A stretch of DNA of 64,000 nt from Rhodothermales bacterium (lineage in GTDB: Bacteria > Bacteroidota > Rhodothermia > Rhodothermales > Bin80): NCBI GenBank assembly GCA_958296045.1, contig CATQHT010000003.1:2666814-2730813 (forward strand), in the 5' to 3' direction. Below, in pieces: positions 14,650 to 50,764 of the stretch; the stretch's first letter is position 1; every line of letters begins with the position of its first letter. The translations under genes and the position numbers were made by a program. Below the pieces are notes generated by a model that saw only the letters and a list, made by a program, of their open reading frames with translations, did no database searches and was not told where the DNA came from.

Positions 14650-17600
14650 CTACCGTGTCACTATGATCGGCTCCATCATGGCCTTCGAACCTGCATTCAC
14701 GCGCAGAAAGTATAGACCACCAGCCATCGCTCCCAGATCTAGCTGTAGCGTGTGAAGACCACCAGCCTGCTCACGGTCCACCAGCACCATCATGCGCTGC
14801 CCGAGCATGTTGAAAAGCTCCACGCGAACCGGCATCGGCTCTGGCAACGCGTAGCTGATGGTCGTGCGACCAGCGACGGGGTCGGGATAGTTGCCGTATA
14901 GAACCAGCTCCGTGGCGCGCTCAAGGGTGGGTTCCGTGGCGGCGCTTAATACGGTTGCAGTGTGGATGGTCCACGCCTCGCCACTGCCCAACCGGTCGAC
15001 ACTGCCCAAGTCAATGCGAAGCCAGATGTTCTCTCCAGCATAACCGGTAAGGTCAAAGATGGCGGTCTCGTCCCGATTGCCTGCAAAGACGGCTTCTCCA
15101 TGCATAGGAACCGACGCGCCAGGGGTGTACGTCTCGTCATAGCCGCCCATGGGCTCAATAACCTCCCACTGGGCACCATCATTTACGCTAGCTTTGACAT
15201 TGCCGCGGGCCTGATCCAGCATCGCTTCATGGGTCATGCGCAGCGAAATTCGGCTCGCGTTGGCAGGGAGCGCCACCGGGGCCAAAACAATGCTGGACAC
15301 CTGAGAGTGCTCATCGCCGCCGGTCTGAAATCCCCCGTTACCGCTTTGGCGCCACACTCCGGTGACGTTGGCACGCGCAAGCGCTGGAAGCTGCTCAATG
15401 GTGGCAGCCTCAATAACCAGCTCCGGCTCACCCTGCGCGGGGACATACGCGGTGTTCTGATCGAAGTCGCGCACACGAAAACGATAGCGCACCTGGTCTC
15501 CCAACTGAAGAGCCTCCGAAATCGGAAAGTCCCCCGCAAAGCGGGTCACATCCGCCGTATTCATGGCTAGGCGCACCGTGCCAGAGGTCGAGGCGCCAAC
15601 CTGTGGCACAAAAGTGTATGCGGCCAGCACCGACTCAATGCCCGTGTTGTCTGACGCTACAAGGTGCACACCCGGCGCTGCGGAACCATGGGGGATATGG
15701 ACCAGTGGCTCAAAGGTGGTGTGCACCACAGGCGCGTCGTCTTCTCGTGGACGCTCTTCTAGAATGCGGATGCCATCGATGGCCCATCCCGCAAAGTCGT
15801 GCGCCGATGAATGTGTGTTGCCGGTGTCTGTGCCCGACTCGATGCGCACCATGAGGCTGGGGACCTGCGGCAAAGGAAATAGCACACGGCGCCAGCCGTA
15901 ACTGTATCCCGCAAAGGCGGGTTCACCATTTAGCGGGTTGCCCGCATCCAGCGTCGCACCATAGCCGCCCTCGGGGTGCAGCACGGACCAAGTCAGACCG
16001 CCATCGGTGGATGCCTTGACGTTACCGCCGTCAAAGGCGGTACCTCCGGTGTTGCTTACCGGATCGGTGATACCGCTGTGCTCCAGGTCGTGCCAGTGCC
16101 AAAGCTCCAGCCACACGCCCGCATAGTATGTGAGGTCAATGGTGGGGATCTTCAGCATGCTTATTGACGCCTGGTCCGTGTAGGGTTCGCCGTCGGCCGT
16201 CATCCAGGCAAATTCGCCTGAGCGGGAGGCCTCCAGCCCGAAGGCTGGCCTGACACGACGCCATTGTCCATCCGCTGGCAGCAGTGGGTCCCCATCCGCG
16301 GTATACGATGCCAGGATGCCGGGTTCAATCATATAGATCGAGAAAGGCCGCACATCAGCTGGCGGCAGCGCGCCCTCATTGCGGTAGTTGGTCAGATCAT
16401 TCGCCCAGATGCGATAATCGATGCGCGTCTTGATCGGCAGGTTCATGGGAGGGAACCGCCCCGTATAGCGGTCCCCTGTTTCTACAAGTGCAAATTTCTG
16501 GACCGGATCCCGCGAACTGTCTGCGTACACCACCTGAAATTCCACCCAGGACTCTCGTACGCCCACATCGTCGGTGATGGTGGCCTCTATGGTCGGTGGC
16601 CACGCCGCCTGCGTCACATGCGTCAGATAGGCATGTGTGATCTCCGGCGCCGTGAAGTCTTCGGTGATTGGCACGGTGAATACCTCTTGTGGCGCATTGG
16701 CGGGGAGCCTTGTCGTGTCGCCATTAGTCTGGTCGACCTCAAAGTAGTAGCGGATCGTCTCCGCGCCAGGCGGGAGCGCGATCGCGTAGGAATACGTGTT
16801 GTCGTCTACGCGCTGCATCGCTGCTGCCGTCCGCGGATCGTCGTCTAACGCATATTGTACTGTGTGACTGACAAGATCATCGGCGCACGACATGGAGGTC
16901 AGTTCTACCACGTGCGGTGATCCATCGTCGTTGGCGAAGTTCGCGGACTGGTGACCAAGCGTCGGGGCGACCTGCCCGCAATCGACGTAGCCGCGATCAT
17001 TGAGGATCGTGCGCATGTCCGCACTGTGGGCGCCTTGGTACCGGTCCTGGTCGGCCTGCAGCAGCGCTTCGGCCGCATCGGCGAAGGTAACTCCCGGGCT
17101 CAGGTAGCCGTGAGAGATGAGATTCAGCTGATCCACCTTTTCTTTGCCGATCGCATCATATATCTGCATCAATGAAGTGGCCCAGATCAGCCCGTCGGCG
17201 TAAATGTTGCAGGTAGGGTTGCCACCCACACACGTAAAGCCACTCGGATAGGTGGCGGTGGAGCCGAGACGACGCCCTGACCAGGTCTCATTGCCGTCCC
17301 AGTCGAAGACCTGCTGCCAATCCTGGCCCTGCACCTGGGACGCATCCATAAGCCCGCGGGTAAAAGACGTGGCCCAATAGTCACTCCAGCCTTCATGAAG
17401 CGCTGCTCCCTCGCCACTGAACAGGTTGGCGCTGCTCGATTCCAGAACAGCATGCCCGTATTCGTGCACCACCACCTCGGCGTCCTCCGCATCGTCTATC
17501 CCTCCGTCGCCAAACTGGATGGTGTTCTGGGCGGGCGAGTATGACGCGTTGTCCTGCGGACCTAGGCCGTGAGGGTTGGCACGGATGCTTCCCCCCTGGA

Positions 17601-18807
17601 TCGGCCGTCCTATGTCGAGAGACCGGATGTAGCGCTGGACTAGGTCCACATGGTAATAGACCAGGACCGCCTCAAAATGCTGATTGGCTCGCAGGTACTG
17701 AAAATCGTCCGCGTTGTCTTCTGCCGGCGTATTGTAGCTGTAGCCGCCAGCCGACCCGTCGATACTCACATGCGGTCCACGTAGCCGGTACTTGCTGTCT
17801 GACCCCAGCTCAATGTCGAGCAAGGTAACCTGTTGGCGCTCATCATTGAGCGCGTTGGAATTCTGGTCATTGTTGTCCACGTAGTCACCCCCGTAGGAGA
17901 CGCCTGCACTTGTCAAAGGGTCGGGGATCCATACCTGCCCGATGCCGTCTACGCGCCCGATAGCAACAACGTCGTTTGCATGGGCATGACCATGAGAATA
18001 GGCCGAATCGTCGATGTGCATGATCTGACCCGGCTTGTGCCACATCACGCGGTCGAGCAGGTGAATCACCGCGCCGGACTGCGCATCCAGCAGCACTTCC
18101 CATTCGCCGGGGGTGTTCTCAGGCCATGCGATGACGCGCCATGCCAGAACAGGCACGGCAAGTGGATGCACGACAAGTTCAGGCTCCGAAGAGGAAGCGC
18201 CCGACTCTGATACGTGCGCTTGGGCGAGGGACCGCGCCTGATCCTGTGACACCGCTGGCGTAACATCTAACGACCGTGCATCCCTCACGTGCGGGGCGTA
18301 GGTGCTCAGTACCATGGTGGGCCGCCCTTCAGGTCCCAGGTTCACCTTAACGGCACGCCGATGGACCGGCACGCCGCGATAGGTCTGGGTGAAGGTGAGG
18401 TGCGTGGAGTACGAGGTGTTAACTTCCTCGGTGAGCACAAGGTCTTCTCCGGTAGTCCATCCGAACCGGTCGGCGTTTGCTTCCATCCATGCGCGCGCGG
18501 TCAGCTCCGGCGAGGCAAGCACTGGCGTCGTGGCCCTGATACGGTATGCGGCGCGCCACACGCCGCTGTCGGAGTCTAGTCGTCCACCCGCCACACGACG
18601 ATGGTTGAACTGCAAGGTGGGATCGAAATCCCGCACCAACGGTCGGGAGGATTCCGGCAGCAGCCCCCGCGCATCTGCGCGCTTTTGCGCATCCGCTGGC
18701 GATGCTATTATCATACACGCCGCTGCGAGGAGCAATAGCGGTAAGGATCGGAACCTGATCGTCGTTGGCATCATGACGCTGGTAAGCTGGTCAAAAAATA
18801 ACAGCAT
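14650..18807 (-). CDS. secreted M36 (fungalysin-like) zinc metallopeptidase with T9SS C-terminal sorting domain
   Basis: Signal peptide. The zinc site VVHEYGHAV is followed by HEGWSDYW (M36 EGWSD motif). There are large repeated beta-rich domains. The C-terminus YPDPVAGRTTISYALPEPMPVRVELFNMLGQ...GLYFLRVNAG is a Por/T9SS sorting domain. Confidence 0.8.
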   Translation of the reverse strand: MLLFFDQLTSVMMPTTIRFRSLPLLLLAAACMIIASPADAQKRADARGLLPESSRPLVRDFDPTLQFNHRRVAGGRLDSDSGVWRAAYRIRATTPVLASPELTARAWMEANADRFGWTTGEDLVLTEEVNTSYSTHLTFTQTYRGVPVHRRAVKVNLGPEGRPTMVLSTYAPHVRDARSLDVTPAVSQDQARSLAQAHVSESGASSSEPELVVHPLAVPVLAWRVIAWPENTPGEWEVLLDAQSGAVIHLLDRVMWHKPGQIMHIDDSAYSHGHAHANDVVAIGRVDGIGQVWIPDPLTSAGVSYGGDYVDNNDQNSNALNDERQQVTLLDIELGSDSKYRLRGPHVSIDGSAGGYSYNTPAEDNADDFQYLRANQHFEAVLVYYHVDLVQRYIRSLDIGRPIQGGSIRANPHGLGPQDNASYSPAQNTIQFGDGGIDDAEDAEVVVHEYGHAVLESSSANLFSGEGAALHEGWSDYWATSFTRGLMDASQVQGQDWQQVFDWDGNETWSGRRLGSTATYPSGFTCVGGNPTCNIYADGLIWATSLMQIYDAIGKEKVDQLNLISHGYLSPGVTFADAAEALLQADQDRYQGAHSADMRTILNDRGYVDCGQVAPTLGHQSANFANDDGSPHVVELTSMSCADDLVSHTVQYALDDDPRTAAAMQRVDDNTYSYAIALPPGAETIRYYFEVDQTNGDTTRLPANAPQEVFTVPITEDFTAPEITHAYLTHVTQAAWPPTIEATITDDVGVRESWVEFQVVYADSSRDPVQKFALVETGDRYTGRFPPMNLPIKTRIDYRIWANDLTNYRNEGALPPADVRPFSIYMIEPGILASYTADGDPLLPADGQWRRVRPAFGLEASRSGEFAWMTADGEPYTDQASISMLKIPTIDLTYYAGVWLELWHWHDLEHSGITDPVSNTGGTAFDGGNVKASTDGGLTWSVLHPEGGYGATLDAGNPLNGEPAFAGYSYGWRRVLFPLPQVPSLMVRIESGTDTGNTHSSAHDFAGWAIDGIRILEERPREDDAPVVHTTFEPLVHIPHGSAAPGVHLVASDNTGIESVLAAYTFVPQVGASTSGTVRLAMNTADVTRFAGDFPISEALQLGDQVRYRFRVRDFDQNTAYVPAQGEPELVIEAATIEQLPALARANVTGVWRQSGNGGFQTGGDEHSQVSSIVLAPVALPANASRISLRMTHEAMLDQARGNVKASVNDGAQWEVIEPMGGYDETYTPGASVPMHGEAVFAGNRDETAIFDLTGYAGENIWLRIDLGSVDRLGSGEAWTIHTATVLSAATEPTLERATELVLYGNYPDPVAGRTTISYALPEPMPVRVELFNMLGQRMMVLVDREQAGGLHTLQLDLGAMAGGLYFLRVNAGSKAMMEPIIVTR

Positions 18808-21930: not shown

Positions 21931-22521
21931 GTCATCGGCGCGTCGCGCGTCGCGGGGGCGGACCGTGGGCTACCGGTTGAGGCCCATGCGGTCGGCAATA
22001 GGGAGAGGTAGCTCCCTATTGGACGAAAACTCCGTGACAGCACGAGGATGACCTTCGTGCTGACGTTGGTTCGAATATGCTGTAGTGCTTGACTCATGAT
22101 GTTGAGGCGTTGGGATTGGATTATCTGACCCTGTGAATTTGTATCTGATCGGTCGGATCACGGAAACGTATAACCCCCGGTGCCATTGTTAACGGCAACT
22201 TCCGCATGCTGATGAACGGCGTGGGATGGAGCAGCGCGCCTTCTTTGCAGACTCGGACAATGGCGCCACTCCCAATAGGCTTTGGCGCTCCAGCTCATAT
22301 GGTGCGGCTTATCACTCGGGCCATAAGTCCGATCCGCGTTAAGCCCTTTGGGACGGGATGATCCTTAGCTACGAGTATCCGGCCCGGGGTGCCACCTTTC
22401 GTATCGGGAAGGCCAGAGCTAGGTGCAATGTAGACCAGCACCAGCGAACGCTCAGCCGTTCGGGTCTCCGTCAGTGGCGGCCATGCGCGCACCAAGGATT
22501 CACCTTACATATGACGCAACT

Positions 22522-23243
22522 ATGGTGAGAATCGAAGCCAGCACATCCACGCTTATCGCCGTGTTCATGATCGCGGCTGCATGCTCTTCTGCTGCATTCG
22601 CGTACGGCCAAGATGCGGCCCAATGGGACGTGACCGCGCCGCTTGGCCCGGTAAAGACTGTGGAATTCTCGACCAGCGAAGGCACATGGATGAACCTCGA
22701 TGTCAGCCCGGAAGGGACTGAAATTGTCTTTGACCTCCTCGGAGACCTGTACGTGCTCCCCATCGAAGGTGGCCAAGCGCGGCTGCTATTGGGAGGTCCC
22801 GCCTTCGACATCCAGCCCCGCTACAGTCCCGACGGCAAGCACATCGCCTTCACCAGCGACCGTGCCGGCGGCGATAACCTTTGGATCGTCAGCCGGGACG
22901 GTACCGACACCACGCAGGTGACCAAAGAGGCTTTTCGCCTGGTCAACGGGCCCGCTTGGACACCGGATGGCAAGTACCTCCTGGGCCGCAAGCACTTCAC
23001 CAGTACCCGCTCTTTGGGGGCTGGCGAGGTATGGATGTATCACATCTCTGGGGGCGCCGGGCTGCAGCTGACCAAGAAGAAGAATTCGCAGCAAGACCAG
23101 GGCAATGAGATTGCGCTCAGTCCCGATGGTCGCTACGTATACTTCAGCGAAGACATCAGTGGCGGTAGCACCTTTCAGTACAACAAGGATCCGCACGGCC
23201 GCATCTATGCCATTCAGCGGTTGGATCGAGTTACAGGCAAGGT
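22522..23243 (+). pseudogene. TolB-like propeller/amidohydrolase gene, segment 1 of 3 (cut by an IS)
   Basis: The signal peptide MVRIEASTSTLIAVFMIAAACSSAAFA is followed by PD40/TolB-like repeats (YSPDGKHIAFTSDRAGGDNLWIV, WTPDGKYLLG). The reading frame runs into the IS inverted repeat at 23244. Confidence 0.8.
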
Positions 23244-23281
23244 CTGCCCTTTACCCATATCGCGACCTAGTCTGACGACTT

Positions 23282-23864
23282 CGATGGCGCCAAAGGGCCC
23301 CCCGCCGCTATCAAGGAGGTCTTCGGCGGCTTCGTGCAGGTGCAGCGCTGCTGTTGGCACAAGCGGGAAAACGTCGTGGCCCACATGAGCAAAGAAGATA
23401 AGCTCGTATATCGGGCGCGCCTGCAGAAAGCCTATCACATTCCAGACTACAGAGACGCGAAGGCGGAAGTCCTATCGATCAAGGACGACCTGGAAGCCTC
23501 CAACCAACTCAAGGCCATGAAGAGTCTGGAGGAAGGCATGGAGGACACGCTCACGATCCAAAGGCTCGCAATAGCCAAAGAGCTCGGCCAAAGCCTGCGC
23601 ACCACCAACTGTATGGAGAATCTCAATAGTACCCTCGGCAGATTGACGCGCAATGTTTGCAGTTGGAACAACTCGGCACAGGTCCACTGCTGGATGGCGC
23701 TGGCTCTCATGTATGCAGAACCCAAACTGAAAACCATCCCCAATCACCAACACCTGCTCAAGCTCCGAAAGGCGCTTATGAAGGTCAGGGCCCGACTGCC
23801 AAACCCCAAAATCCCCTTCTCCCCCCAGCGGGTGCCTTGGACCTATCTTCAGGCCCAGCAATAG
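23282..23864 (+). pseudogene. IS256 (Mutator) family transposase, C-terminal half only
   Basis: DGAKGPPAAIKEVFGGFVQVQRCCWHKRENVVAHMSKEDK...LRTTNCMENLNSTLGRLTR matches the IS256 pattern DGxxGLxxAI...QRCxxHKxRN...TTNxxExLN. The N-terminal half is absent. Confidence 0.75.
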
Positions 23865-24055
23865 TGCTCAGTTCGCGGCGATGAGTGATCATGCGGAGCA
23901 CCCTTGCTGACTTTTTGCACTTCGCCGCTCGTAAGGTTTCGACATGCCGTCACTCAATGTGCGTTCAGACTTGCATTAGAGGTATCCACTGCTTACGATG
24001 CCAGTGCTGCTCCGTGGTGGCGTGCCTCTGGCTCGTGCGTCGATGCGCGACAGGG

Positions 24056-26368
24056 TCAAGAAAGTATGCTGCTCCCATGGCCATAGTCGCAACCAAGCCC
24101 TTCTCGATACGCTGCCGGCAGTATTTCGTACCCAAAGCAAATGGTGGATAGTCGCTCTAATCCGCGCCACATGATCTGAAAGCCGGGCGGTCCATCGCGA
24201 GTTCGATTCTGATAGCCGCCCATTACTGCTACTAGCAGAAGCGCCGCTTCCAGGGTGCGGGGTACCGGCAGCTTCACGTTCTTAGCATAAAAGGAGAGAG
24301 CAATCAACTGCATCGGGGAGAATATCAGCTCGGCATCTAATCCAGGGACGGCACGCCCCAGTAAGGTGAGCATCATGACATAGCAGGCGATCACGCAGTA
24401 CACCGCCAACCCACGTTCCAGGCGCGCTGCCGAACGCATCGCCATGCGTTCCACCTTACAGCCACTCTTGAGCACACGGAAAAAGTCTTCAACACGCCAT
24501 CGCCGGGTATAATAAGTCAGGATCTGCACCGCTTCTTCTGCGCTGTGCACCGCCATACTGGTCAGCAGATACCATTCCACCGCCTTCTCTCCCTTCGGGG
24601 GCGCGATCTCCCGGACATGCACGCCGTACATCGCTACGGATCCCCCTTGCCGCTGCGTGGCGGGCAGCTGTACGCAATGGTAGCGTACCTCGGCTCGGGC
24701 AATACGGTGACTACGTCCGTGGCGCACCTTCTTCCTGGAAGACTTCGGACGCGCCGTGACCCGTTGGATCTCTATCCGCACCTTCGCTGCGGCAGGACCG
24801 CTGCGAAGCGTCGCAAACAGCTTTTTATTCTTCGCCAGTCTCCGGTCATGACGGGCGCGGACCAGGAGTTCCACGCGATCCTGTGCCCGCTGGGCGGCAA
24901 ATAGCGCAAAGTTATCCGCCTCCCGGTCCATCACGCAGATGAGGCGACACTGCTTGGGAATCTCCTCTGCTGCTTCGCAGATGTCCAGAAATCCGTCTAA
25001 CCACTGCTGCGATCGAGGTTTGAGCGGTCCCGTATCTGGATCCCGATAACTACAACGTAATATCCCCAGGGGCAGGCCATCGGTAGTAGTAACCAGCGTG
25101 GCATGAAGGGGCATCCCACGGGATTTTGCTTTCGTCTGGTTGGTACCTATGACCTGCAAGTCTTCACAGGCGGGTCGCGTGCTGAAATTCAGCTTGGTGG
25201 TATCCTGTATGCAGAGTACCGCCTTCTGACTCCGTATCCGCTCAATCGTACGTTTGCGATGCGGCGCCAGCATGTTTTCGGGTGTTACGTCGGTCTGCTT
25301 GCTGCTCAGAAGCCGGTAATGGGCCTTCACCGCCGCCCTATCATGGCTTATATGGGAGCATATAGGCTTTCCTATCACATCGGCCAACAACGATGCGCTC
25401 TTCACCAGCCGCGTGGACAGCCGCCTGTCTCCCAGCGGAGCATCTCCGAACTCTGCCTCAACCCAGTCGTCCATGCCTTCGTGCGGTTGCCTGACCGGAC
25501 GCAGCGCCACCTCGGGTACGCCCAAGTACGAGCGCCACCGGCGGTCCACTTCGTACATGAACAAGGCCTTCGGCGCTTCTTCTTTGGAATGTGCGTGGCG
25601 CTTGCCCCCAGCAGTATAGCCGATGGACAGAAAATTGGCCGCCTTCAAGCACGTACCTTTCCATGGAGGTTCCACATACGTTTCTATCAACCAGGGGTGG
25701 TATCCATAAAGCGCATAACAGTCGTCAGATAACTGCTTCAACACCCTGCCGAGTACGTGACTGGCCAGGTATTTGCAAGTGCCGCGTATCAGAAAGCGGC
25801 TCAAACAGAAGATGCGGTGGAGGTGCGCTTGGCGTTGGGCATCGCTCCATGCCATGAAGTGTTCCCTTGCGGCCAAGCGCAAGGCCGGGGCGGAAAAACC
25901 TACCGCGCCCAGATATCCATGCGCGCTCACTACCAGGTACCGCAGCTGGGCACCAACAAGGGTGGTCGTACCACGAGGATGCTCATGGTGCAGCAGGGTA
26001 TTCCACACCGCACGCTGTGCTGCGGTCCGAACTCTTACTACTGCAAGACCTTCCACCTCACCCAAAGTCGCGGGCATCGCCACCGGTGGAGCAACCGCCT
26101 CGTCCAACAGGCGGGGCGACGCCTGCGCAGCATGATTGTTGAGCGGTGCTGGCAGTGTGATCTCACCCCGTGCCTCCAGCTTCAAGAGGGCTTTCGCGCA
26201 GGTAGCTACCTGTGCCCTGCCTTTGGCATCTACAAATCCAAAGTCCTCACATACACGGCGCGCAATCGCGGTGCGATTGGGAAGGCTCTCGTCAGAAAGC
26301 CTCTTCTTCAAGCGAATGCGCCCCCGGGGAGCACTGAGAGTCCGCAAAACCTGATTCTGCTCGAACAT
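24056..26368 (-). CDS. fusion transposase: N-terminal DUF4338 (DruA-like) domain + Tn5/IS4-type DDE transposase
   Basis: 770-aa intact ORF. The N-terminal part GAQLRYLVVSAHGYLGAVGFSAPALRLAAREHFMAWSDAQR...CLSRFLIR...GYHPWLIETYVEPPWKGTCLKAANFLSIGYTAGGKR fits my memory of the DUF4338 pattern. The C-terminal part has Tn5-like DDE regions (LCIQDTTKLNF, ICVMDREADNF, YYTRRWRVEDFFRVLKSGCKVE). Confidence 0.8.
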   Translation of the reverse strand: MFEQNQVLRTLSAPRGRIRLKKRLSDESLPNRTAIARRVCEDFGFVDAKGRAQVATCAKALLKLEARGEITLPAPLNNHAAQASPRLLDEAVAPPVAMPATLGEVEGLAVVRVRTAAQRAVWNTLLHHEHPRGTTTLVGAQLRYLVVSAHGYLGAVGFSAPALRLAAREHFMAWSDAQRQAHLHRIFCLSRFLIRGTCKYLASHVLGRVLKQLSDDCYALYGYHPWLIETYVEPPWKGTCLKAANFLSIGYTAGGKRHAHSKEEAPKALFMYEVDRRWRSYLGVPEVALRPVRQPHEGMDDWVEAEFGDAPLGDRRLSTRLVKSASLLADVIGKPICSHISHDRAAVKAHYRLLSSKQTDVTPENMLAPHRKRTIERIRSQKAVLCIQDTTKLNFSTRPACEDLQVIGTNQTKAKSRGMPLHATLVTTTDGLPLGILRCSYRDPDTGPLKPRSQQWLDGFLDICEAAEEIPKQCRLICVMDREADNFALFAAQRAQDRVELLVRARHDRRLAKNKKLFATLRSGPAAAKVRIEIQRVTARPKSSRKKVRHGRSHRIARAEVRYHCVQLPATQRQGGSVAMYGVHVREIAPPKGEKAVEWYLLTSMAVHSAEEAVQILTYYTRRWRVEDFFRVLKSGCKVERMAMRSAARLERGLAVYCVIACYVMMLTLLGRAVPGLDAELIFSPMQLIALSFYAKNVKLPVPRTLEAALLLVAVMGGYQNRTRDGPPGFQIMWRGLERLSTICFGYEILPAAYREGLGCDYGHGSSILS

Positions 26369-26520
26369 GCTGCTATAGTAAGCAACACGACTTACAATGT
26401 CAAGTGGTCCCTATGGGCCGGGGGCAGACCTGAGCACTATTGCTGGGCCTGAAGAGAGGTCCAATGCACCCGCAGAGTCGTCAGACTAGGTCGCGATATG
26501 GGTAAAGGGCAGGGCAAGGT

Positions 26521-27091
26521 TGTGACATTGGTTAGCGGGGCTGGCGGGGCTGCGCGCCCTGAGCCCTCGCCCGACGGTCGCCACCTCGCCTTTGTGAGAC
26601 GGGTGCGATCCAAGAGTGTACTGTACCTGTACGACATGGCCAGTGGTGCCCAGCGGCCGCTATGGGACGGGTTAAGCCACGATCAGCAGGAGGCCTGGGC
26701 TATCTTTGGCGTTTATCCTGGCTTTGACTGGACGCCGGATGGAAAGCACATCATCTTGTGGGCCGAGGGCAAAATTTGGCGCGTGGCAATCACTCACGGC
26801 CAAGTGGCCGAAGTGCCCTTTACGGCGCCGGTCAAGCAAGAGGTGCACGAAACGTTGCGCTTCCGGCAGGAGGTCTTCGGCACCTCTTTCGACGTTCGCA
26901 TGATTCGCGATGCAGTCACCTCGCCCGATGGTGGCACGCTGGTGTTTGCGGCGCTGGGCACCCTGTGGAAAAAGACGCTGCCCAGCGGAGAGCCTCAGCG
27001 CCTGACAGACGACGATGTGCACGAGCACGAACCCGCATTTAGCCCCGATGGTAAAGTTGTGGTGTACACCATGTGGAGTGACTCGACGTTG
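26521..27091 (+). pseudogene. TolB-like propeller/amidohydrolase gene, segment 2 of 3
   Basis: The frame continues exactly across the IS once one target-duplication copy is removed (..RVTGKV|VTLVSGAGGAARPEPSPDGRHLAF..). It ends at codon ..WSDSTL immediately before the intron GTGCG. Confidence 0.8.
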
Positions 27092-27797
27092 GTGCGCCAG
27101 GCTAACTGGTGCCAGTACAGGGAGTGAAAGTCTCCCGATGTGAAGGACTAACCATCCACGCATCTCCTCGAGCCGTGCGTCGGTACCCGCGAGGGTGCAG
27201 GCGAAGCGTCGGTAGAGGTGCGGGTGGGCAGGGCTAATGAGCACCGAAAATGTCATCGTCCGGGACGCCGAGGGTTTCTTCGTGGTCGAAGGCAACACCT
27301 TCTTTGCCGTTAATGGTGAGGCGGAGGAGGGTCCCGCGGTGTCCAAGAACCCAGGCACGCACGTACGTACTGCATCGGGACCTGGGAGGTCTCTCCACTA
27401 CCCATCCCTTCGGGGAGGGTCGCCAAAGCGTAGGCTAAATGCCGATCGGAGGATGTACGGTGGAGAGAAGTCAGATGCGACCATAGTAGCTATGAAGCCA
27501 GCGAACAACGCGTGGATGACCACGGGGCGGAGCCGGTGGAGCCAAGGGTCGCACCCAAGGGGAAAGCGGGAAGCTGGATTCATGCCGGACTCTGGGCTGG
27601 ATTACGTGGATCTGTCCAAGAGCTGTGGACTCAGTGCCACAGTCGGGGCGCAGGTGTACCGCTTACGGCTGGAGGTGGGGTTTCCCCACTTCCTAACGTC
27701 ATGCGCGGGAGCGCGACCTGCGGGAAGAGCCGTGTGCGTTAACGCGCACGCACGGATCTGTGCGGGGCCCCAGGGGAAACCCTGGGGCTACCGCGAT
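27092..27797 (+). mobile_element. group II intron, ORF-less (intron-encoded protein deleted)
   Basis: 5' GUGCGCC. Domain V is at 27727-27758 (GAGCCGUGUGCGUUAACGCGCACGCACGGAUC, with the AGC triad and AC bulge). Domain VI is GCCCCAGGG-GAAA-CCCUGGGGC with an unpaired A at 27790, 7 nt before the 3' end ..AU. Removal leaves the exons in frame. Confidence 0.8.
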
Positions 27798-29729
27798 GGC
27801 GCCATCTGCCGAGTTCCGCTGGTAGGCGGTCGCTGTGAGCAGCTGACCACGCGTCCTGGGCACTACTTCACTCCTCGGTTCAGCCCAGACGGGTCCAAAA
27901 TCGTGTACCAGCGCGGCACCGGCAATGCGCTGCGCGGCACCCTACACGGGACAGATCCCGGCCTATACTGGATGGCATCTGATGGCAGCGCGCCGCACCT
28001 GATCACCGAATCTGGTGCCGATCCGCGCTTCGATGCCACAGGGGAGCGCATATACTTTATGGCGGGCGGTGGCCTTGAAAAGGAGTACCGCAGCATCAGC
28101 CTGCACGGCGCCGAGCCACGGGTGCACTTTACGCTGAAGTATCCGGCCGAGGTGGTGCCAAGCCCTGACGGCACGCTGGTGGCTTTCACGGAGCTATTCA
28201 ACGCGTACGTTGCGGCCTTTCCGGCAACAGGCGGCCCGGTGGCGCTGGCGAAGGATACCAAGGCGATACCGGTCCACCAGGTCAGCCGAGATGCTGGGAC
28301 GAGTATTCACTGGACTGAGCGCGGATTGCACTGGGTGCTGGGTCCACGATACTTCACCCATGATGTGCGCGGCGGATTCCCGGTTAGCGGTGCCGACAGC
28401 ACCGGGGTGCCGATAGGGCTGGTGGCCGCGTCGGATAGGGTGACTGGAGCCGTGGCGTTTACGGGTGCACAGGTCGTCACTATGCGAGGTGACGAGGTGC
28501 TACAGGATGCGACCGTAGTGGTAGAGGGCTCTCGTATCATTGCGATAGGCGCCGACGTCTCTATCCCCGAAGGCGCCTTGGTGATCGATGCTGCGGGCCA
28601 GACCATTCTCCCGGGCATCATTGATGCACATGCGCATGCCAGCCACTTCGTCAGCGGTCCATTGCCCCAGGAGAACTGGGCTTATTTGGCCAACTTGGCC
28701 TATGGCGTCACTACGGCGCATGACCCGAGTGCCAGCACCGCTACGGTCTTCACGCAGAGCGAGATGGTACGGGCCGGGTTGTTGACGGGGCCGCGCATCT
28801 TTTCGACGGGGACGATCCTTTACGGGGCAGACGGTGACTTCAAGGCGGTGGTCAACAGCTTAGACGATGCTCGGAGCCACCTTCGTCGGATGCAGGCGGT
28901 AGGTGCCTTCTCCGTCAAGAGTTACAACCAGCCGCGCCGCAACCAGCGGCAGCAGATCGTGCAGGCGGCCAGGGAGTTGAAGATGAACGTGGTGCCGGAA
29001 GGGGGATCTACCTTTTTCCACAACATCACCATGATCCTGGACGGCCATACGGGAATCGAGCACAACCTGCCGGTGGCGCCACTGTACCAGGATGTGCTGC
29101 GGCTGTGGGCTGCCACCGAGGTCGGGTACACGCCGACCTTGGTGGTCAGCTACGGTGGATTGTCTGGAGAGTTCTTCTGGTACCAGCGGGACAACGTGTG
29201 GGAAGATGAGCGCCTTCTGACCTTCGTTCCGCGCGGCATCGTGGATGCTCGCAGCCGGCGGCGCCTGATGGCGGATGCGGACGACTATTTCTATCTGGAA
29301 GTTGCGCGGCAGACGAAGAAGCTGGTCGATCAGGGAAACATCGTGCAGGTCGGGGCGCACGGCCAGATGCAGGGCATCGCGGCGCACTGGGAATTATGGA
29401 TGTTGCACCAGGGCGGCATGACCTCGCACGAAGCGCTGCGCAGCGCGACGCTGCATGGTGCCCAATACCTGGGGTTGGATCATGAGCTGGGCTCACTGGA
29501 GCCGGGAAAGCTCGCCGACCTGATGGTTATTGACGGGGACCCATTGACAGACCTTTACCAGTCTGTCAATGTGGCGCAGGTCATGGTCAACGGGCGTCTG
29601 TACGATGCGCGCACCATGGATCAGATCGGCAACCATCCCGCGCCGCGAGGCTCGCTGTACTGGGAACGGCATGAGGTGAGCGAAGAGCTGCTCGATCACG
29701 GCCCGGCGTGTGTGTGCGGCCGCCACTAG
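27798..29729 (+). pseudogene. TolB-like propeller/amidohydrolase gene, segment 3 of 3 (amidohydrolase domain)
   Basis: GAICRVPLVGG...FSPDGSKIVYQRG, then the metal-dependent hydrolase motifs PGIIDAHAHASH, GSTFFHNITMILDGHTGIEH, GAHGQMQG and KLADLMVIDGDPL. The 830-aa ORF in the track begins inside the intron. Confidence 0.85.
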
Positions 29730-35962: not shown

Positions 35963-37546
35963 TTAGCGTGTGCGCATGGCCGTGCGCACTGCCTGATAGC
36001 GCCCGCCGCCAGCCGTTGCTATCACGAGGTAGTGGCCGCTGGGCAGGCGCGTAGCGTCCAGGTGCACTAGGTGACGTCCGCTGGGCAGGAAGCCTGAAAA
36101 AAGGACGGCGGCGGTGCGGCCTGCCACATCGTGCACTTTGATGGTCACGGACTGCGCCACCGGGTTGCTGAGCTCCAGTGTGGTGCGTTGGTTGAAGGGG
36201 TTGGGATAGGCGGCCCCCAGTGCAAAAGTGGCAAGCTGGGCAGGGGCTTTTGGGCTGGGGTCTTTTGCGGTGGTGCCGACCGGGTCGTATTTGAGCAGGT
36301 ACAGTCCGTGAAATGCGCTGGTAACCGCTACGGTGCCGCTTGCAAAGTAGGGGTAAGCCGTCCAGGCTCCGAAGTATCCGGCATGGTCGCTAAATGGATA
36401 CGTATCAAAGTAGGCGATCTCTACGGGTGCGGTCGGTGAGGAGATGTCCGCCATACGTAGGCCACTGGCGTAGTTGGCCATATACAGCGTATCTCCTTTA
36501 ATGTAGAGGTTGTGATCTGTGGCATCGGTCGGGCCGAAGTATTCTGCGGCGAGCACCGGGTCATCCAGGTCGGTCATATCCCAGATGAGTGTTCGAGTGC
36601 CGGGCAGGGGTGTCTCGCCCAGCCAGTGGCGCATGAGCTCATCGGTCTCATCGTTAAGGTAGAGGAAGGTATGGTCTTCACTCAGCCACGCCTGGTGGGC
36701 ATACGATGCGTCTGGATATTCCGCGCTGCTCAGTTTGCGCGGCTGTGATTTGTCGGAGACATCCGCGACGCTAATGCCGTCCACGTTGGCCAGGATACAA
36801 ATCTCCGAGCCGTCGTGGTCGGTGTCGGGTCCGTGGTACACCACGCACTGCACGTCATGGGTGTATCCAGAGGTGTTGTCGCCGAGGCTGGTATCGCGGT
36901 AGCATCCTGCGTAGGCGGGTTGCAAAGGATCAGTGATGTCCACCATATGCAGTGCTAAGGGGCAGGGGCCATTGTCTGATCCTACCACGTAGGCAAATCC
37001 GGTGGCGGTGTTAATAGCCACGTTATGGGCCTGGTCGAACAGATCGTAGTGAGCAGTTGCGACAAAGGTCTGAGGCGTGCTCGCGGGCGATCGCAGTTGC
37101 GTCAGATCAAAGACTTGCATGCCGTTGGTCCCATCCACATCCTGGACGACGAATACATGATCCTGGAACACTTTCAGGTCGCGCCATCCAGACGTGGAAT
37201 TGTCCTGCGAGGGTAGTTTGCCCAGGTATTCTGGGTTGATCGGGTCGGTGATATCCACGAAGGCCACCGCATTGACTGTGCCTACGAGCGCGTATTCATG
37301 GCCGTTGACTGAATCGGTCCATCCCCACATGTCTAGCACTTCGGGGGCTTCCAGCCGGTCCGGCATCAGCCTTGACAGGAGTGCCACATTGTGGCAGGCA
37401 TGCCCGGCTGCTTCGCCGCTGGTGCAGTTGACGCGGTTGCCCGTGATGGAGGGTTGTGCAGACGCTGGCATGCTCAGCAGCGCCCCAGCGAGCAATGTTG
37501 CGATAGGAGAGCGCACTTCGTTGAAGATGTTGAGCAAGGCAGCCAC
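35963..37546 (-). CDS. choice-of-anchor B / LVIVD-repeat beta-propeller protein with T9SS C-terminal domain
   Basis: Signal peptide. DMWGWTDSVNGHEYALVG, QVFDLTQLRSP and GLRMADISSPTAPVEIAYFDT. The C-terminus YPNPFNQRTTLELSNPVAQSVTIKVHDVAGR...GHYLVIATAGG is the sorting domain. It is a paralog of 49214-50764 and of the C-terminal half of 59678-61966. Confidence 0.8.
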   Translation of the reverse strand: MAALLNIFNEVRSPIATLLAGALLSMPASAQPSITGNRVNCTSGEAAGHACHNVALLSRLMPDRLEAPEVLDMWGWTDSVNGHEYALVGTVNAVAFVDITDPINPEYLGKLPSQDNSTSGWRDLKVFQDHVFVVQDVDGTNGMQVFDLTQLRSPASTPQTFVATAHYDLFDQAHNVAINTATGFAYVVGSDNGPCPLALHMVDITDPLQPAYAGCYRDTSLGDNTSGYTHDVQCVVYHGPDTDHDGSEICILANVDGISVADVSDKSQPRKLSSAEYPDASYAHQAWLSEDHTFLYLNDETDELMRHWLGETPLPGTRTLIWDMTDLDDPVLAAEYFGPTDATDHNLYIKGDTLYMANYASGLRMADISSPTAPVEIAYFDTYPFSDHAGYFGAWTAYPYFASGTVAVTSAFHGLYLLKYDPVGTTAKDPSPKAPAQLATFALGAAYPNPFNQRTTLELSNPVAQSVTIKVHDVAGRTAAVLFSGFLPSGRHLVHLDATRLPSGHYLVIATAGGGRYQAVRTAMRTR

Positions 37547-42665: not shown

Positions 42666-45600
42666 CTACACCGACGCTTCCTGCGAGGCCGAGGTGCGCC
42701 CGAAGGTGCGCCCCCGCCAAAGGTAAAAGACTACGGGAATCACAAAGAGACACAACACCGTTGCGGAAATCATGCCCCCCACCATGGGCGCCGCCACACG
42801 CTGCATGACCTGTGACCCGGTGCCATGCCCCCACATCAATGGAAGAAGTCCTGCAACCACCGTGATCACCGTCATCAGGACCGGCCGCAGGCGCCAGGTC
42901 GTGCCTGCAATGACCGCCTCCCTCAGATCCTGCATGCTGCTCATGCGGCCTTCGGCTTCTCTAGATTCACACGCACGATGCAGGTAGGTCAGCATCAGCA
43001 CGCCCAGCTCAGCTGCCAGGCCCGCCAGCGCCAACAGACCAACGCCCACCGCCACACTTAGCGCATAGTCCAGAAGGTGTAACAGCCATATGCCGCCTGC
43101 CAAAGCGAATGGCAGCGATAACATGACCATAAGGCACTCGGCCAGACGACCGAAATTCAGGTACAACAGCAGCAGAATGATCAGCAACGTGACGGGTACC
43201 ACAATCCGCAGTCGCGCCTCGGCCCGCTGCATGTATTCAAACTGCCCGCTCCACATCAGGCTGTAGCCGTCGGGCAAATCCACAGCGGCAGCGACAGCGC
43301 GCTGGGCCAGCGACACGTACGTCCCTACATCAGTGTCCCGAATGTCCACATAAACCCATGCGGTACGGCGCGCATTCTCGCTCCGGATCACAGGCGGTCC
43401 CGCAACATAGTCGAATGCGGCTACATAGCTGAGCGGAATGCGCGCCCCGTGCGGCGTGTCAATGAGCATCCGACCTATCGCCTCTGGCGTGCTGCGCAGA
43501 TCACGGCTGTAACGTACGCTGACCGGATAGCGCTCAAGGCCTTCTACCGTACGTGTCACGTTCGAGCCGCCAGCGGCAGACATAATAACTTCTTGGACAT
43601 CAGCAACAGCAAGCCCGTAGCGAGCTGCCTCCTCACGGTTGATCGTAAAGTCCAGAAAGTTGCCGCCCAGCGTCTTGTCCGCAAAAGCACTGGCCGTGCC
43701 AGGCACCCCGCTCAGTGCCGCAACAACCTCCTGGCCGAGCGCGGCCAAAACCTCAGGGTCTGGACCCATAATCTTGACACCTACGGGAGTCTTGATGCCG
43801 GTCGACAACATGTCCGTCCGAGCTTTGATCGGCATAGTCCATGCATTGGTCAACCCGGGGAAAGCGATCGCCTGATCCAGCTCCTCCACGAGGCGCTCGT
43901 GCGTCATGCCCTCTGGCCACTGACTCCTGGGTTTGAGCCTGATAGTGGACTCAATCATAGATAAAGGAGCAGGGTCCGTGGCGGTTTCCGCACGCCCAGC
44001 CTTACCTAACACATGTTCCACCTCTGGAAAGGAGGCGATGATCCGGTCCGTCTGCTGAAGCAGCTCCTTGGCTTTGGTGATGCTGATGCCAGGATCCGTA
44101 GTCGGCATATAAAGCAAGTCCCCCTCGTCAAGGGGAGGCATAAACTCGGAGCCAAGCCTGCTGAGTGGATAGGCGGTAGATGCCAGCACCAGCACGGCGC
44201 CCGCTAAGACGAGCCAGCGCCGCCGGAGCGCCACTCGGATCAGGGGCCCATAGATAAAAGCGAGTAGCCGGTGAATGGGATTCCTTGCAGCTGGCGTGAG
44301 CGAGCCCCGAACGAAGTACCCGACCAGCACAGGCACCAACGTCACCGCCAGAAGCGCAGCCGCCGCCATAGCATACGTCTTCGTGTACGCCAGCGGACCA
44401 AACAGGCGTCCCTCCTGGGCCTGCAGCGCAAAAACAGGCAGGAACGATAGCGTAATGATCAACAGAGAATAGAAAAGCGGCGGACCCACCTCCTTAGCAG
44501 CACCGGCCACCACAGACCAGTGGTCCTTTTGTCTGCTGCTAAGCGCGAGATGGCGATGCGCGTTTTCCACCATCACGATGGCCCCGTCCACCATGGCGCC
44601 GATAGCGATGCCGATCCCGCTTAGCGACATGATGTTGGCGTTGAGCCCCTGAAAATGCATTGCCAGAAATGCCAACAGAATCCCAAGCGGCAGCGAAAGG
44701 AGAACAACGAGCGTGCAGCGCACACTTAGCAGAAAAAGCATGACCACCACCGCCACCATGAGGCATTCCTCCAGAAGCTTGCGCTTGAGGTGGTCAATGG
44801 CGCTAAGGATGAGCCCGCTGCGGTCATAGGCCGCCCGAATGGTGACACCAGGAGGCAGGCCATCCTCCAGCGCCGCAAGCCGCTCTTTGACGGCTTCAAT
44901 AGTCTCCAGCGTGTTGGCGCCGTGGCGCATCACTATGATGCCCCCCACGACCTCACCTTCGCCGTTGAAGTCCGCCACCCCGCGCCGAAGCTCGGGCCCC
45001 ACCTGGACACGAGCCACATGACGGACCAGTATCGGGATGCCCCGATCGTCCACACCCACGGCAGTCTGCTCAATGTCTTCCACGGACCGGATATAGCCCA
45101 GACCACGCACCATAAATTCCGATTCTCCTATCTCGATGAGCCGCCCGCCCACATCACTGTTGCTGCGCTCTAGGGCGCTGCGCACTGCCCGGAGCGATAC
45201 CCCGTACGCCTGGAGCCGGTTGGGATCCACCTCGACCTGATATTGCTTGACGAAGCCACCCAATGAAGCCACCTCGGCCACGCCCTCCACGCTCATCAAC
45301 TCATAACGCAGAAACCAGTCCTGTATAGAGCGCAGCTGCTGAAGGTCGTACCGGTTGCCTCCTTCGAGCACGTATTCGTAGATCCAGCCCACGCCCGTGG
45401 CGTCCGGGCCCAAGGTAGGCGTGACGCCCTGCGGCAAGCGGCTCGCCACGACGTTGAGGTATTCTAGGACGCGCGAGCGTGCCCAGTACAAATCGGTGCC
45501 GTCTTCGAAAATGATGTAAACAAAAGACACCCCGAAGAAAGAGTAGCCCCGTACCGTTTTGGCATAGGGTACCGAAAGCATGGCCGTGGTGAGCGGATAC

Positions 45601-45797
45601 GTGACAAGATCTTCGACCACCTGCGGCGCCTGCCCCGCAAACTCCGTGTGGATGATTACCTGTACATCCGAAAGGTCCGGGATAGCATCGACGGGGGTGC
45701 GCAGCATTGCATACACACCGCCCAGTCCCGCCAGAAGTGCGAAGATCAGGACCACGAAGCGGTGCCTGACCGAGGCCTCTATAATATGGTGCAACAT
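42666..45797 (-). CDS. CusA/CzcA-family heavy-metal efflux RND pump
   Basis: 1043 aa. 12-TM RND architecture with two large periplasmic loops. The family-typical N-terminus is MLHHIIEASVRHRFVVLIFALLAGLGG. Last gene of an OMP-adaptor-pump operon. Confidence 0.9.
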   Translation of the reverse strand: MLHHIIEASVRHRFVVLIFALLAGLGGVYAMLRTPVDAIPDLSDVQVIIHTEFAGQAPQVVEDLVTYPLTTAMLSVPYAKTVRGYSFFGVSFVYIIFEDGTDLYWARSRVLEYLNVVASRLPQGVTPTLGPDATGVGWIYEYVLEGGNRYDLQQLRSIQDWFLRYELMSVEGVAEVASLGGFVKQYQVEVDPNRLQAYGVSLRAVRSALERSNSDVGGRLIEIGESEFMVRGLGYIRSVEDIEQTAVGVDDRGIPILVRHVARVQVGPELRRGVADFNGEGEVVGGIIVMRHGANTLETIEAVKERLAALEDGLPPGVTIRAAYDRSGLILSAIDHLKRKLLEECLMVAVVVMLFLLSVRCTLVVLLSLPLGILLAFLAMHFQGLNANIMSLSGIGIAIGAMVDGAIVMVENAHRHLALSSRQKDHWSVVAGAAKEVGPPLFYSLLIITLSFLPVFALQAQEGRLFGPLAYTKTYAMAAAALLAVTLVPVLVGYFVRGSLTPAARNPIHRLLAFIYGPLIRVALRRRWLVLAGAVLVLASTAYPLSRLGSEFMPPLDEGDLLYMPTTDPGISITKAKELLQQTDRIIASFPEVEHVLGKAGRAETATDPAPLSMIESTIRLKPRSQWPEGMTHERLVEELDQAIAFPGLTNAWTMPIKARTDMLSTGIKTPVGVKIMGPDPEVLAALGQEVVAALSGVPGTASAFADKTLGGNFLDFTINREEAARYGLAVADVQEVIMSAAGGSNVTRTVEGLERYPVSVRYSRDLRSTPEAIGRMLIDTPHGARIPLSYVAAFDYVAGPPVIRSENARRTAWVYVDIRDTDVGTYVSLAQRAVAAAVDLPDGYSLMWSGQFEYMQRAEARLRIVVPVTLLIILLLLYLNFGRLAECLMVMLSLPFALAGGIWLLHLLDYALSVAVGVGLLALAGLAAELGVLMLTYLHRACESREAEGRMSSMQDLREAVIAGTTWRLRPVLMTVITVVAGLLPLMWGHGTGSQVMQRVAAPMVGGMISATVLCLFVIPVVFYLWRGRTFGRTSASQEASV

Positions 45798-49213: not shown

Positions 49214-50764
49214 CTACCGCACCAGCGCCACCGGCAGTGTGTGTGCATGTGCCCCTGAGCTGGCCCGGATGAAGTAGGTCCCGCTCACTAGGTTGCCAGC
49301 GTCAAAGGCCAGCCGGTGTCGTCCCTTTGTCAATTCGCCCGTGTGCAAGACCGCGATCTCCCGCCCAGCGGTATCAAAGACGCGCACATCCATCGTCCGC
49401 TCCTTCAGGAGGGATAGAGACACGTTAAGGACCGGATTGAATGGGTTGGGGTATGCGTCATGCAGCATGAATGAGCCGGGCGGGGCCTCCAGCAACGCAG
49501 CCGGCATCCCAAGAGTCTTTGTACTAAGCATGAATAGGCCCTCAGGTGAGCTGCTGACCAGCACTGTGCCGCTGGGCAGGAATGGATAGGCTGTCCAGGC
49601 GCCCCAGAACCTGAGGTCATCGTTTTCTGGGTGTGTGTCGAAGTAGGCGACCTCTTGCGGAGTCGCAGGGTCGGCCACGTCAAGGATGCGCAGCCCAGAC
49701 GTATAGTTGGCCATGTATACGTATTGGCCAGCGACGTACAAGTTGTGGTCGATCGATCGGGCTTGTCCCCAGTACTCGGTAAGGATCACCGGATCATCTA
49801 GGTCTTCCACGTCCCAGATAAGCGTCCGTGTACCTTCGCCGCGGCCGCCATCACGCAGCAGGTTGCGCTCATCGAGCTCATCGTTCTGCACCACGTACCG
49901 GTGGTCGGGCGTCAGCCATCCCTGGTGGGCATAAGACACATCTGGATAATCTGAGCGCGCGATGGCGACCGGCGCCGCCTTGTCGGTGACGTCAGCGATG
50001 CTGATGGCGTTTTCGTTGAAGCCGATGCAGATTTCGCGTCCAGCATGGTCTGTATCCGGTCCGTCATAGATCACGCACTGTGCATCATGCGTGTATCCGC
50101 TGCTGCCGCGGCCAGTAGAGTAGTCTCTGTAGCAGCCGGCATACTTGGGCTTGAGCGGGTCCCTGATGTCGATCATATGGAGCCCCAGGGAGCAGTCGTT
50201 ATAGTTGCCGTACCGGCTACCCACGGCATAGGCAAAGCCGGTGGCCTCATTGATCACAATGTTATGGGCTCGCCCTATACGGTCGTAGTGCGCGTCCGCA
50301 TCGAATTCGTAGGGCCTTGTTGGGGGCGACAGCAGCCGGCTGAGGTCAAAGATCTGCATGCCATTGCGCCCGGCGCCGTCCACGACCACGAACATGTGGT
50401 CCTTATAGACCTTCATGTCGCGCCAGACGGAAGTCGATTGCCAGTCCTGTGAAGGAAGCAGACCGATATACTCAGGATTGAGCGGGTCGGTGACCTCCAC
50501 GAAGGCTACATGCTCAAAGGTGCCGACTAGCGCAAACTCCCGCCCTGAGGACGGGTCTGCCCAGCCCCAAACGTCATTAAGGTAGTTAGCATCGCCGAGC
50601 TCTGCGGGAATGATCCTAGAAAGCAGCGTGACCTCGTTGCAGCTAAAGCCGCGCACGTGGCCATTGATGCATTCGAGCTCGGTGCCGGTGATGGACTGCA
50701 GCTGTTGCCCTGCCGCGGGCGTGAGCGCGGTAAGGCCCATAAGCAGTGCAAAAGGCAGTTTCAT
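49214..50764 (-). CDS. choice-of-anchor B / LVIVD-repeat beta-propeller protein with T9SS C-terminal domain
   Basis: Paralog of 35963-37546: DVWGWADPSSGREFALVG, QIFDLSRLLSP and GLRILDVADPATPQEVAYFDT. C-terminus YPNPFNPVLNVSLSLLKERTMDVRVFDTAGR...GTYFIRASSG. Confidence 0.8.
   Translation of the reverse strand: MKLPFALLMGLTALTPAAGQQLQSITGTELECINGHVRGFSCNEVTLLSRIIPAELGDANYLNDVWGWADPSSGREFALVGTFEHVAFVEVTDPLNPEYIGLLPSQDWQSTSVWRDMKVYKDHMFVVVDGAGRNGMQIFDLSRLLSPPTRPYEFDADAHYDRIGRAHNIVINEATGFAYAVGSRYGNYNDCSLGLHMIDIRDPLKPKYAGCYRDYSTGRGSSGYTHDAQCVIYDGPDTDHAGREICIGFNENAISIADVTDKAAPVAIARSDYPDVSYAHQGWLTPDHRYVVQNDELDERNLLRDGGRGEGTRTLIWDVEDLDDPVILTEYWGQARSIDHNLYVAGQYVYMANYTSGLRILDVADPATPQEVAYFDTHPENDDLRFWGAWTAYPFLPSGTVLVSSSPEGLFMLSTKTLGMPAALLEAPPGSFMLHDAYPNPFNPVLNVSLSLLKERTMDVRVFDTAGREIAVLHTGELTKGRHRLAFDAGNLVSGTYFIRASSGAHAHTLPVALVR

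Follow-up and report, generated by a model that had tools for sequence, protein, structure and literature searches.

Does a conserved enzyme gene in a Rhodothermales bacterium tolerate, or even depend on, a group II intron in its coding strand? This question is raised by a 64,000-nucleotide stretch of contig CATQHT010000003.1 (assembly GCA_958296045.1; hereafter 'the window'), in which a 706-nt element (27092-27797, forward strand) lies inside a protein-coding gene. A first-pass annotation made from the letters alone had read the element as a group II intron that lacks an open reading frame (ORF) and sits in frame in a conserved enzyme gene. Bacterial introns mostly lie outside genes, housekeeping genes in particular (PMC4424553), and bacterial ORF-less introns are rare, short-lived and almost always coexist with related introns that encode an intron-encoded protein, or IEP (PMC4424553; Zimmerly and Semper, 2015). 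We found that the element is a complete group II intron without its own reverse-transcriptase (RT) gene, and that the host gene is a pseudogene here, whether the intron is spliced or not. The intron is probably one copy of a proliferating, non-autonomous, ORF-less lineage of the type described by Rfam model RF02005, mobilised by an IEP acting in trans and recently inserted.

We scanned the whole 64-kb window against Rfam at gathering thresholds and obtained three matches, two of them inside the element. RF02005 (group-II-D1D4-6) matches the domain I core at 27127-27351 (+), including the branch that bears exon-binding sites 2 and 1 (EBS2 and EBS1), over the full length of the model (positions 1-225) with 167.9 bits (gathering score 49; E = 1e-48). 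This score falls within the 146-190 bits of complete relatives; an internally truncated relative, L024, scores 116. RF00029 (domains V/VI) matches at 27725-27797 with 40.0 bits (E = 2e-4 when the whole window is searched, 3.7e-6 in a local scan). A permissive Rfam rescan of the intron region added nothing relevant. The ends of the intron can be placed exactly. Its first bases are GUGCG (27092-27096; the start reads GUGCGCC), which fits GUGYG, and it ends with ..CUACCGCGAU at 27797, that is ..GAU, whose terminal AU fits AY. Covariance models thus bear out the first-pass assignment of the element to group II.

The predicted ribozyme domains follow the same pattern. Domain V (27727-27758, +) is a 32-nt hairpin with the AGC triad, an AC bulge, a 4-bp distal helix and a UAAC loop. 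The hairpin recognised earlier at this position is the RF00029 domain V, with a tetraloop that is not of the GNRA type. Domain VI (27762-27794, +) contains an unpaired branch-site candidate, A27790, 7 nt from the intron 3' end, as had been proposed. We aligned domains V/VI of 11 distinct sequences, five of which were found independently of the domain V pattern described below. Of the 28 pairs in the consensus fold, 12 differ on both sides between sequences (4 of these in domain V), and the branch A is unpaired in every sequence. Domain V pairs that differ on both sides in relatives include U-A to G-C and G-C to A-U. The A opposite the triad G, raised earlier as a caution about domain V, is invariant in 11/11 family sequences; the G·A is a trait of this class and no defect.

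The helices that close domain I also differ in a compensatory manner between the window intron and a relative, L012: UGCCAGUAC/GUACUGCA versus CAAGAAGU/ACUUCUUG in one helix, and GUGCG/CGCAC versus CAGACA/UGUCUG in the second. The minimum free energy fold of the whole intron has a z-score of -5.2, a value that serves as a rough guide only. A pair count in a MAFFT alignment (84% in the window versus 92-97% in most relatives) could be taken as ribozyme decay; we rejected this interpretation because the 'broken' pairs are mostly alignment register shifts. Judged from its sequence, the ribozyme looks intact: domains I, V and VI are all present, as are the branch A, EBS1 and a candidate EBS3.

The host gene product combines a PD40 (TolB-like) beta-propeller with an amidohydrolase (Pfam PD40 and Amidohydro_1/3). 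The gene is present in three segments on the forward strand. The 5' segment (22483-23243, with an alternative GTG start at 22423) encodes the N-terminal part of the PD40 region and is colinear with orthologues to ..RLDRVTGKV. The middle segment (26521-27091) is the 5' exon of the intron and ends ..MWSDSTL. The 3' segment (27798-29729), which begins at GAICRVPLVGG, encodes the remainder of the propeller and the amidohydrolase, as identified by Pfam (Amidohydro_1/3) and orthologue alignment.

Orthologues provide a direct view of the intron boundaries. The host frame runs to ..WSDSTL at 27091 and is followed at once by the GUGCGCC of the intron, exactly where the first-pass annotation had placed the junction. 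The exon-1 reading frame reaches a stop 12 codons into the intron, and all three forward intron frames contain stops. Excision of 27092-27797 restores the frame at a codon boundary (phase 0); an intron-free allele would read ..GACTCGACGTTGGGCGCCATCTGC... We aligned the joined protein with 40 orthologues and found no gap and no extra residue at ..WSDSTL/GAICRV.., in agreement with the in-frame join proposed earlier.

The same gene carries a second interruption. A nested insertion sequence (IS) of 3,269 bp (23244-26512) splits the gene 580 bp upstream of the intron. The outer IS has perfect 37-nt terminal inverted repeats (23244-23280 and 26476-26512), is flanked by an 8-bp target duplication (GGCAAGGT, at 23236-23243 and 26513-26520) and contains a remnant, C-terminal only, of a Mutator/IS256-type transposase (23334-23864, +). 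Within it lies an inner element with 47-nt inverted repeats (23828-23874 and 26427-26473) and a 770-aa Tn5/IS4-type transposase (24056-26368, -). An IS-free allele would read ..ACAGGCAAGGTTGTGACATT.., and the junction obtained when the IS and one duplication copy are taken out, ..VTGKV/VTLVSG.., is likewise gapless against the 40 orthologues. When the intron is removed as well, an uninterrupted 1,107-codon ORF results, with no other stops or frameshifts. Since the host ORF is otherwise undamaged, both insertions are recent.

These features change how the intron's position is to be understood. Homologues of the host protein number in the thousands; the best matches reach 79% identity and are uninterrupted, and those with a name are from Rhodothermales. 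Because the IS already breaks the host gene, splicing is not needed to rescue a working gene. The earlier description of an ORF-less copy in a conserved enzyme gene is thus right about the sense strand and the missing ORF, but the gene is also broken by an IS and the element belongs to a multicopy family.

At its N-terminus the IS-encoded 770-aa transposase has a DruA-like domain (PF14236, E = 3e-19). Clustering at 90% identity groups it into a set of 17 members, and 16 of these (several truncated) are on contigs of 2.88 and 0.83 Mb, showing that this IS is multicopy too. Two predicted ORFs at the locus are artefacts. A 209-aa ORF (26498-27127) starts in the right inverted repeat of the IS and ends inside the intron, and an 830-aa ORF (27237-29729) starts in intron domain I; both are present as predicted proteins in public collections. 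The lesson for annotation is that such ORFs arise where an intron and an IS have both interrupted a gene. We also considered the ORF at 42666-45797 as a paralogue of the host gene and rejected it, as it encodes an AcrB transporter instead.

Domain IV of the intron contains no RT/maturase ORF. We identified in its place a frameshifted remnant of an IEP N-terminal leader (27453-27622, +) by blastx and tblastn comparison with the IEPs of two full-length relatives, L001 and L002. In frame 2 (27453-27509), the blastx match aligns MYGGEKSDATIVAMKPANN with MNGHEKSDSAIVAVNPTNN of a full-length relative's IEP (63% over 19 aa). After a +2-nt shift, the match continues in frame 1 (27527-27568) with AEPVEPRVAPKGKA against AEPGEPRAGTKGNA (64% over 14 aa), and weaker similarity extends to approximately 27622 (about intron position 531). 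The leader-like stub noticed in the first-pass annotation is therefore real and frameshifted, though its extent is about 55 codons, not about 40. At the DNA level, the remnant shares 75-77% identity with the region where the ORF begins in full-length introns from plasmids, and a cognate RT/maturase would be expected to carry the leader GGEKSDATIVAMKPANN..AEPVEPR. A tblastn search of the 64-kb window with seven IEPs revealed no RT in the intron or the window beyond this leader remnant.

The remainder of domain IV after the ORF deletion (27623-27724, +) includes a hairpin (27671-27693) that is kept, with compensatory changes, in sister ORF-less introns. Just before domain V, the sequence ..ACCUGCGGGAAG is similar to the end of the ORF in relatives (..ACCUGAGGUAG). 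On the 3' side of the deletion, ..ACCTGCGGGAAG/GAGCCG bears a weak likeness to ..ACCTGAGGTAG/GAGCCG of L001.

We searched for other copies using the 187 intron-encoded residues of the 830-aa ORF frame as the query, which gave 12 protein clusters. We identified 16 distinct intron-derived ORFs on contigs of 2,880,851 bp (the window's contig), 1,054,277 bp and 828,064 bp. Near-identical introns are common to all three contigs and the IS is common to the 2.88- and 0.83-Mb contigs, suggesting that the three probably come from one assembly. Several copies (P0141 among them) are 99% identical to the window intron over all 187 residues, and since the identity spans all intron-encoded residues these copies are equally ORF-less. 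A 94-aa protein encoded on the window's contig clusters with the 830-aa ORF; there, the same domain IV-VI reads into a different 3' exon. The 3' flanks of the copies differ, reading GVPWSVVDL, EHPGGQ.., VLPVRD.. or ATTVMV.., or continuing into an IS110-type or an IS4-type transposase. Several copies with the same deletion thus occupy different genomic sites, and the ORF-less form has probably reached about sixteen copies in the source genome.

The residues that vary among the copies are those encoded by the EBS1 loop (GFFVV, AFLLA, ALHLA, ALILV and AFCLV, from translations), and residues of the EBS2 region vary as well (NV, NI, NF and NA, likewise from translations). Three copies are themselves associated with other mobile elements. 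P0143 (0.83-Mb contig) is an ORF-less copy that reads in the sense direction into an IS4-like transposase (..RWKIENECF..), and P0157 (1.05-Mb contig) reads in the sense direction into an IS110-like transposase (..MPGVGPISA..). P0148 reveals a copy into which the IS256-like element has inserted.

Some full-length relatives lie on plasmids. A blastn search of plasmids identified RF02005-type introns of approximately 1,910 nt in Agrobacterium, Methylocystis, Sinorhizobium and others, with a 493-aa ltrA that has RT and X domains and no endonuclease (En) domain. The introns of Agrobacterium vitis plasmid pRvVAR0630b (NZ_AP023275.1, L001) and of a Methylocystis sp. MJC1 plasmid (L002) match the same domain I model (182-190 bits) and share with the window intron a domain V with G·A, domain VI, the 3' end and the same IEP leader (EKSDxxIVAxKxxN...AEPxEPR). 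DNA identity between the window intron and introns of the L001/L002 type is 67-77%. Unlike the window intron, L001 and L002 are approximately 1,910 nt long, encode the 493-aa RT/maturase, have an EBS1 that pairs 6/6 with the 5' exon and are located outside long sense ORFs.

ORF-less relatives occur in other genomes. A 23-nt domain V/J5-6 pattern retrieved 35 loci from reference genomes (Acidobacteriota, Planctomycetota, Pseudomonas and others; the source genome is not among them), which according to Rfam include full-length and ORF-less members. Metagenome scans with a 24-mer of the window's domain V/VI and with a degenerate leader pattern gave 0 matches. Sister ORF-less introns (L039-L043; ENA ERZ25067264, ERZ25072076 and ERZ25069191, uncultured genomes) are 668-703 nt long and 79-83% identical to the window intron end to end. 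Their domain IV remnant and both of their ends match those of the window intron, they too are multicopy, and they often have an imperfect intron-binding site 1 (IBS1; 4-5/6). They differ from it in their EBS1 loops and in the genomes that carry them. The sister copies display compensatory changes both in the hairpin of domain IV and in domain V, where U-A/G-C becomes G-C/A-U.

Several of these relatives have arrangements of their own. L039 (2954-3621) is a sister ORF-less intron inserted, in phase, behind codon 41 of an ORF for a 974-aa helicase of the SNF2 family; the neighbouring genes (Helicase_C/MZB and N6_Mtase/MmeI/Eco57I) have a defence-type look. L041 (599-2589; ENA ERZ25067264 ctg718655) is a twintron-like nest, in which an RF02005-type ORF-less copy from 599 is followed by an RF02001-type (D1D4-3) intron (1347-1516, with domains V/VI at 2517-2589), into which another ORF-less copy of the RF02005 type has inserted (1605-2272). 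Metagenome-assembled genomes of Bryobacterales (L010, L015, L012 and L019) contain introns of one subfamily in two forms, full-length (1,920 nt) and ORF-less (645 nt), with common flanks, ..GGCGTAAGGCTCCAGCCTTG before the intron and a CCCGAG..CGATTC..CGG hairpin after it. The shared flanks mean that these introns home into a repeated sequence. ORF-less members of the RF02005 class recur in Acidobacteriota and Planctomycetota (L006, L023, L026, L036 and L024). The intron start is GAGCG rather than GUGCG in L005, L011, L017, L020, L021, L036 and L024, and GUGUG in L006.

How does the intron recognise its exons? We assigned EBS1 by the complementarity of one domain I hairpin loop to the last six exon bases in 14 distinct relatives. 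The loop is complementary to the 5' exon at 6/6 positions in 11 of the 14 and at 5/6 in two more; L043 and L041b, two of the sister copies, also reach 5/6. The conserved AUCGCAAG loop of L001 was considered as EBS1 and rejected, as the loop upstream of it is the one that covaries with exons in all relatives. In the window intron, the EBS1 predicted by this covariation is CUUCGU (27278-27283, +, within the hairpin loop 27273-27287), and the corresponding IBS1 is ACGUUG (27086-27091, +). Only 4/6 positions pair; -2 and -3 are U·U mismatches. Orthologues conserve the Leu codon at the mismatched IBS1, and the residues encoded by EBS1 are the same in other near-identical copies; the mismatch is therefore a property of the site and not of later decay.

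Two further contacts are predicted. C27344 (+) is a candidate EBS3 that is complementary to the first base of the 3' exon, G27798. Its alignment column, just 3' of the EBS branch, covaries with the +1 exon base across the family (G-C, A or G-U, and C-G). The +1 base is G in 4/5 sister copies, and all seven readable copies of the source genome continue with a G-initial codon (as deduced from ORF tails), which fits a C at EBS3. A tentative EBS2, GUCAU (27252-27256, +), has a possible partner in the exon, GUGAC at -14 to -10 (tentative IBS2, 27078-27082, +). This assignment is weak, as it involves 5 bp and several relatives have no clear EBS2 pairing.

The position of the window intron is also atypical for its family, since intron removal in most relatives leaves no long sense-strand ORF across the junction. 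An off-target (ectopic) insertion, and not homing, would best explain both the poor EBS1 match and the location within a gene.

Class C (IIC) introns insert just after a terminator or attC stem-loop, lack an EBS2 and have a CGC triad. We rejected this class for the window intron in view of its location in coding sequence, its AGC triad, its RF02005 match and a 6-nt EBS1 loop that covaries with exons. An IEP without an En domain, as found in the full-length relatives, fits classes C, D, E or F (PMC3552965). The IEP of this lineage is possibly of class D, E or F/g.

Together, these observations suggest a history for the window intron. An ancestral intron lost almost the whole RT/maturase ORF from domain IV; only the initial ~170 nt, which hold the now frameshifted leader, and a handful of bases beside domain V are left. 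A copy then most likely entered the PD40-amidohydrolase gene on the sense strand at a codon boundary, through reverse splicing and reverse transcription by an IEP made elsewhere in the cell. With a site that only partly matches EBS1, this would have been an ectopic insertion, and any splicing or further movement would again depend on an IEP supplied in trans. Because retromobility needs an RT and many near-identical ORF-less copies occupy different sites, an IEP likely acts in trans now or did so recently. The analysis shows what the element is, where it begins and ends, that its ORF is gone, that it is multicopy and that an IS disrupts the gene; trans mobilisation, this mode of insertion and the splicing competence of the window copy are inferred.

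Several points weigh against this history. First, the 4/6 EBS1-IBS1 pairing may prevent efficient splicing. Second, a protein search with the repaired 43-aa IEP leader returned no candidates, and no IEP gene was found, the DNA of the source genome having been read within the window only. Third, the copy count rests on predicted proteins and not on DNA, and the three contigs belong to a single genome only with probability. Finally, the RF00029 score equals the gathering score exactly.

The alternative that fares best is that the window copy is a dead relic, unable to splice or move, whose insertion inactivated the gene so that the later IS was neutral. The two central U·U mismatches, set against the 6/6 pairing of most relatives, are consistent with this possibility, as are the lack of an RT in the window, the pseudogene state of the host gene and the reviewed finding that most bacterial group II intron copies are inactive (PMC4424553). 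Against it, the ribozyme bears no sign of decay: the window intron has a normal RF02005 score, family-canonical domains V/VI and 99% identity to several other copies. Equally poor IBS1 matches are moreover common in the sister copies, so that loose target choice may be the rule in this lineage. We regard a dead relic as unlikely, while giving it appreciable weight.

A different, and somewhat more doubtful, proposal concerns the age of the ORF-less form. Several Rhodothermales-like genomes share the form at 79-83% identity, and even what is left of domain IV has undergone compensatory changes. Tentatively, it could thus be an old, self-sustaining lineage that spreads with relaxed pairing, including into the sense strand of genes, and that a common trans-acting IEP splices. 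Were this true, bacteria would contain 'introns without genes' that share one splicing factor, possibly without a cognate full-length intron in some genomes.

The intron could also be a domesticated, splicing-only element whose efficient removal (by self-splicing or by a host or trans-acting maturase) keeps the enzyme gene functional, like organellar ORF-less introns in housekeeping genes. An exactly colinear, phase 0 insertion on the sense strand, intact domains I, V and VI and a host ORF free of stops or frameshifts besides the two insertions all speak for this reading, and a sister copy lies in phase in the SNF2 helicase ORF. The upstream 3,269-bp IS, however, leaves no possibility of a full-length protein. 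The closest orthologues, 79% identical, are uninterrupted, which identifies the intron as a recent arrival; its EBS1-IBS1 pairing is poor; and the presence of so many near-identical copies, at sites with no relation to one another, points to a mobile element. Domestication is accordingly improbable: the window intron is a spreading parasite, not an intron on which its host depends.

That the element is no intron at all, and is a chance resemblance or another insert (an intein-like coding insert or a miniature inverted-repeat transposable element), is suggested only by an RF00029 score at threshold and has next to no probability given the full-model RF02005 match, stops in all three forward frames, exact GUGCG...AU ends, the gapless orthologue alignment after excision and RT-bearing full-length relatives that are homologous along domains I-IV and V-VI.

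The closest precedent for a proliferating ORF-less lineage is TeI3 of Thermosynechococcus elongatus (Mohr, Ghanem and Lambowitz, 2010; PMC2882425), where driver IEPs of related introns were shown to mobilise and splice ORF-less copies in trans (PMC2882425). Like the window family, TeI3 is multicopy and ORF-less, with common domain IV deletion break-points, ORF remnants with a broken frame, an intact ribozyme and EBS divergence among copies. The two systems differ in several respects. TeI4 IEPs have DNA-binding and endonuclease (D/En) domains, whereas the window intron is of the RF02005 type, whose relatives' IEP has no En domain. TeI3 copies are mostly intergenic with good EBS/IBS pairing, whereas the window copy pairs at 4/6 positions inside a coding gene. 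The hosts differ as well (T. elongatus versus the Rhodothermales-like genome studied here), and the driver IEPs were demonstrated experimentally in T. elongatus, whereas the trans IEP of the window family is deduced from the copies.

ORF-less group II introns inside protein-coding genes are also known from C.te.I1 of Clostridium tetani and from organelles, and the window intron resembles them in both features. C.te.I1 is a single-copy, self-splicing intron with no related IEP in its genome, and organellar ORF-less introns are old, pass vertically between generations and depend on host factors for splicing (PMC4424553). The window intron is unlike either in that it is recent, multicopy and mobile-looking and lies in an IS-broken gene.

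Other features of the window concern its chromosomal setting. We identified three ORFs with Por_Secre_tail, the C-terminal sorting domain of type IX secretion, together with LVIVD or M36 peptidase domains (14650-18807, 35963-37546 and 49214-50764 (-)), which fit a Bacteroidota/Rhodothermota chromosome. A tRNA is located at 59583-59656. The GC skew of the window, computed to infer the replication strand, is 0.015 overall with a fluctuating sign.

The window intron thus gives no evidence that a functional conserved gene tolerates an intron. It is an ORF-less and presumably trans-dependent group II intron, a new member of a kind already known. The more interesting fact is the existence of a multicopy, multi-genome ORF-less lineage with some copies in the sense strand of coding genes, in a host whose phylum differs from that of the classic T. 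elongatus example. If a driver IEP were found and splicing shown, this lineage would provide a second independent natural model of how group II introns lose their gene, multiply and end up dependent on a splicing factor held in common.

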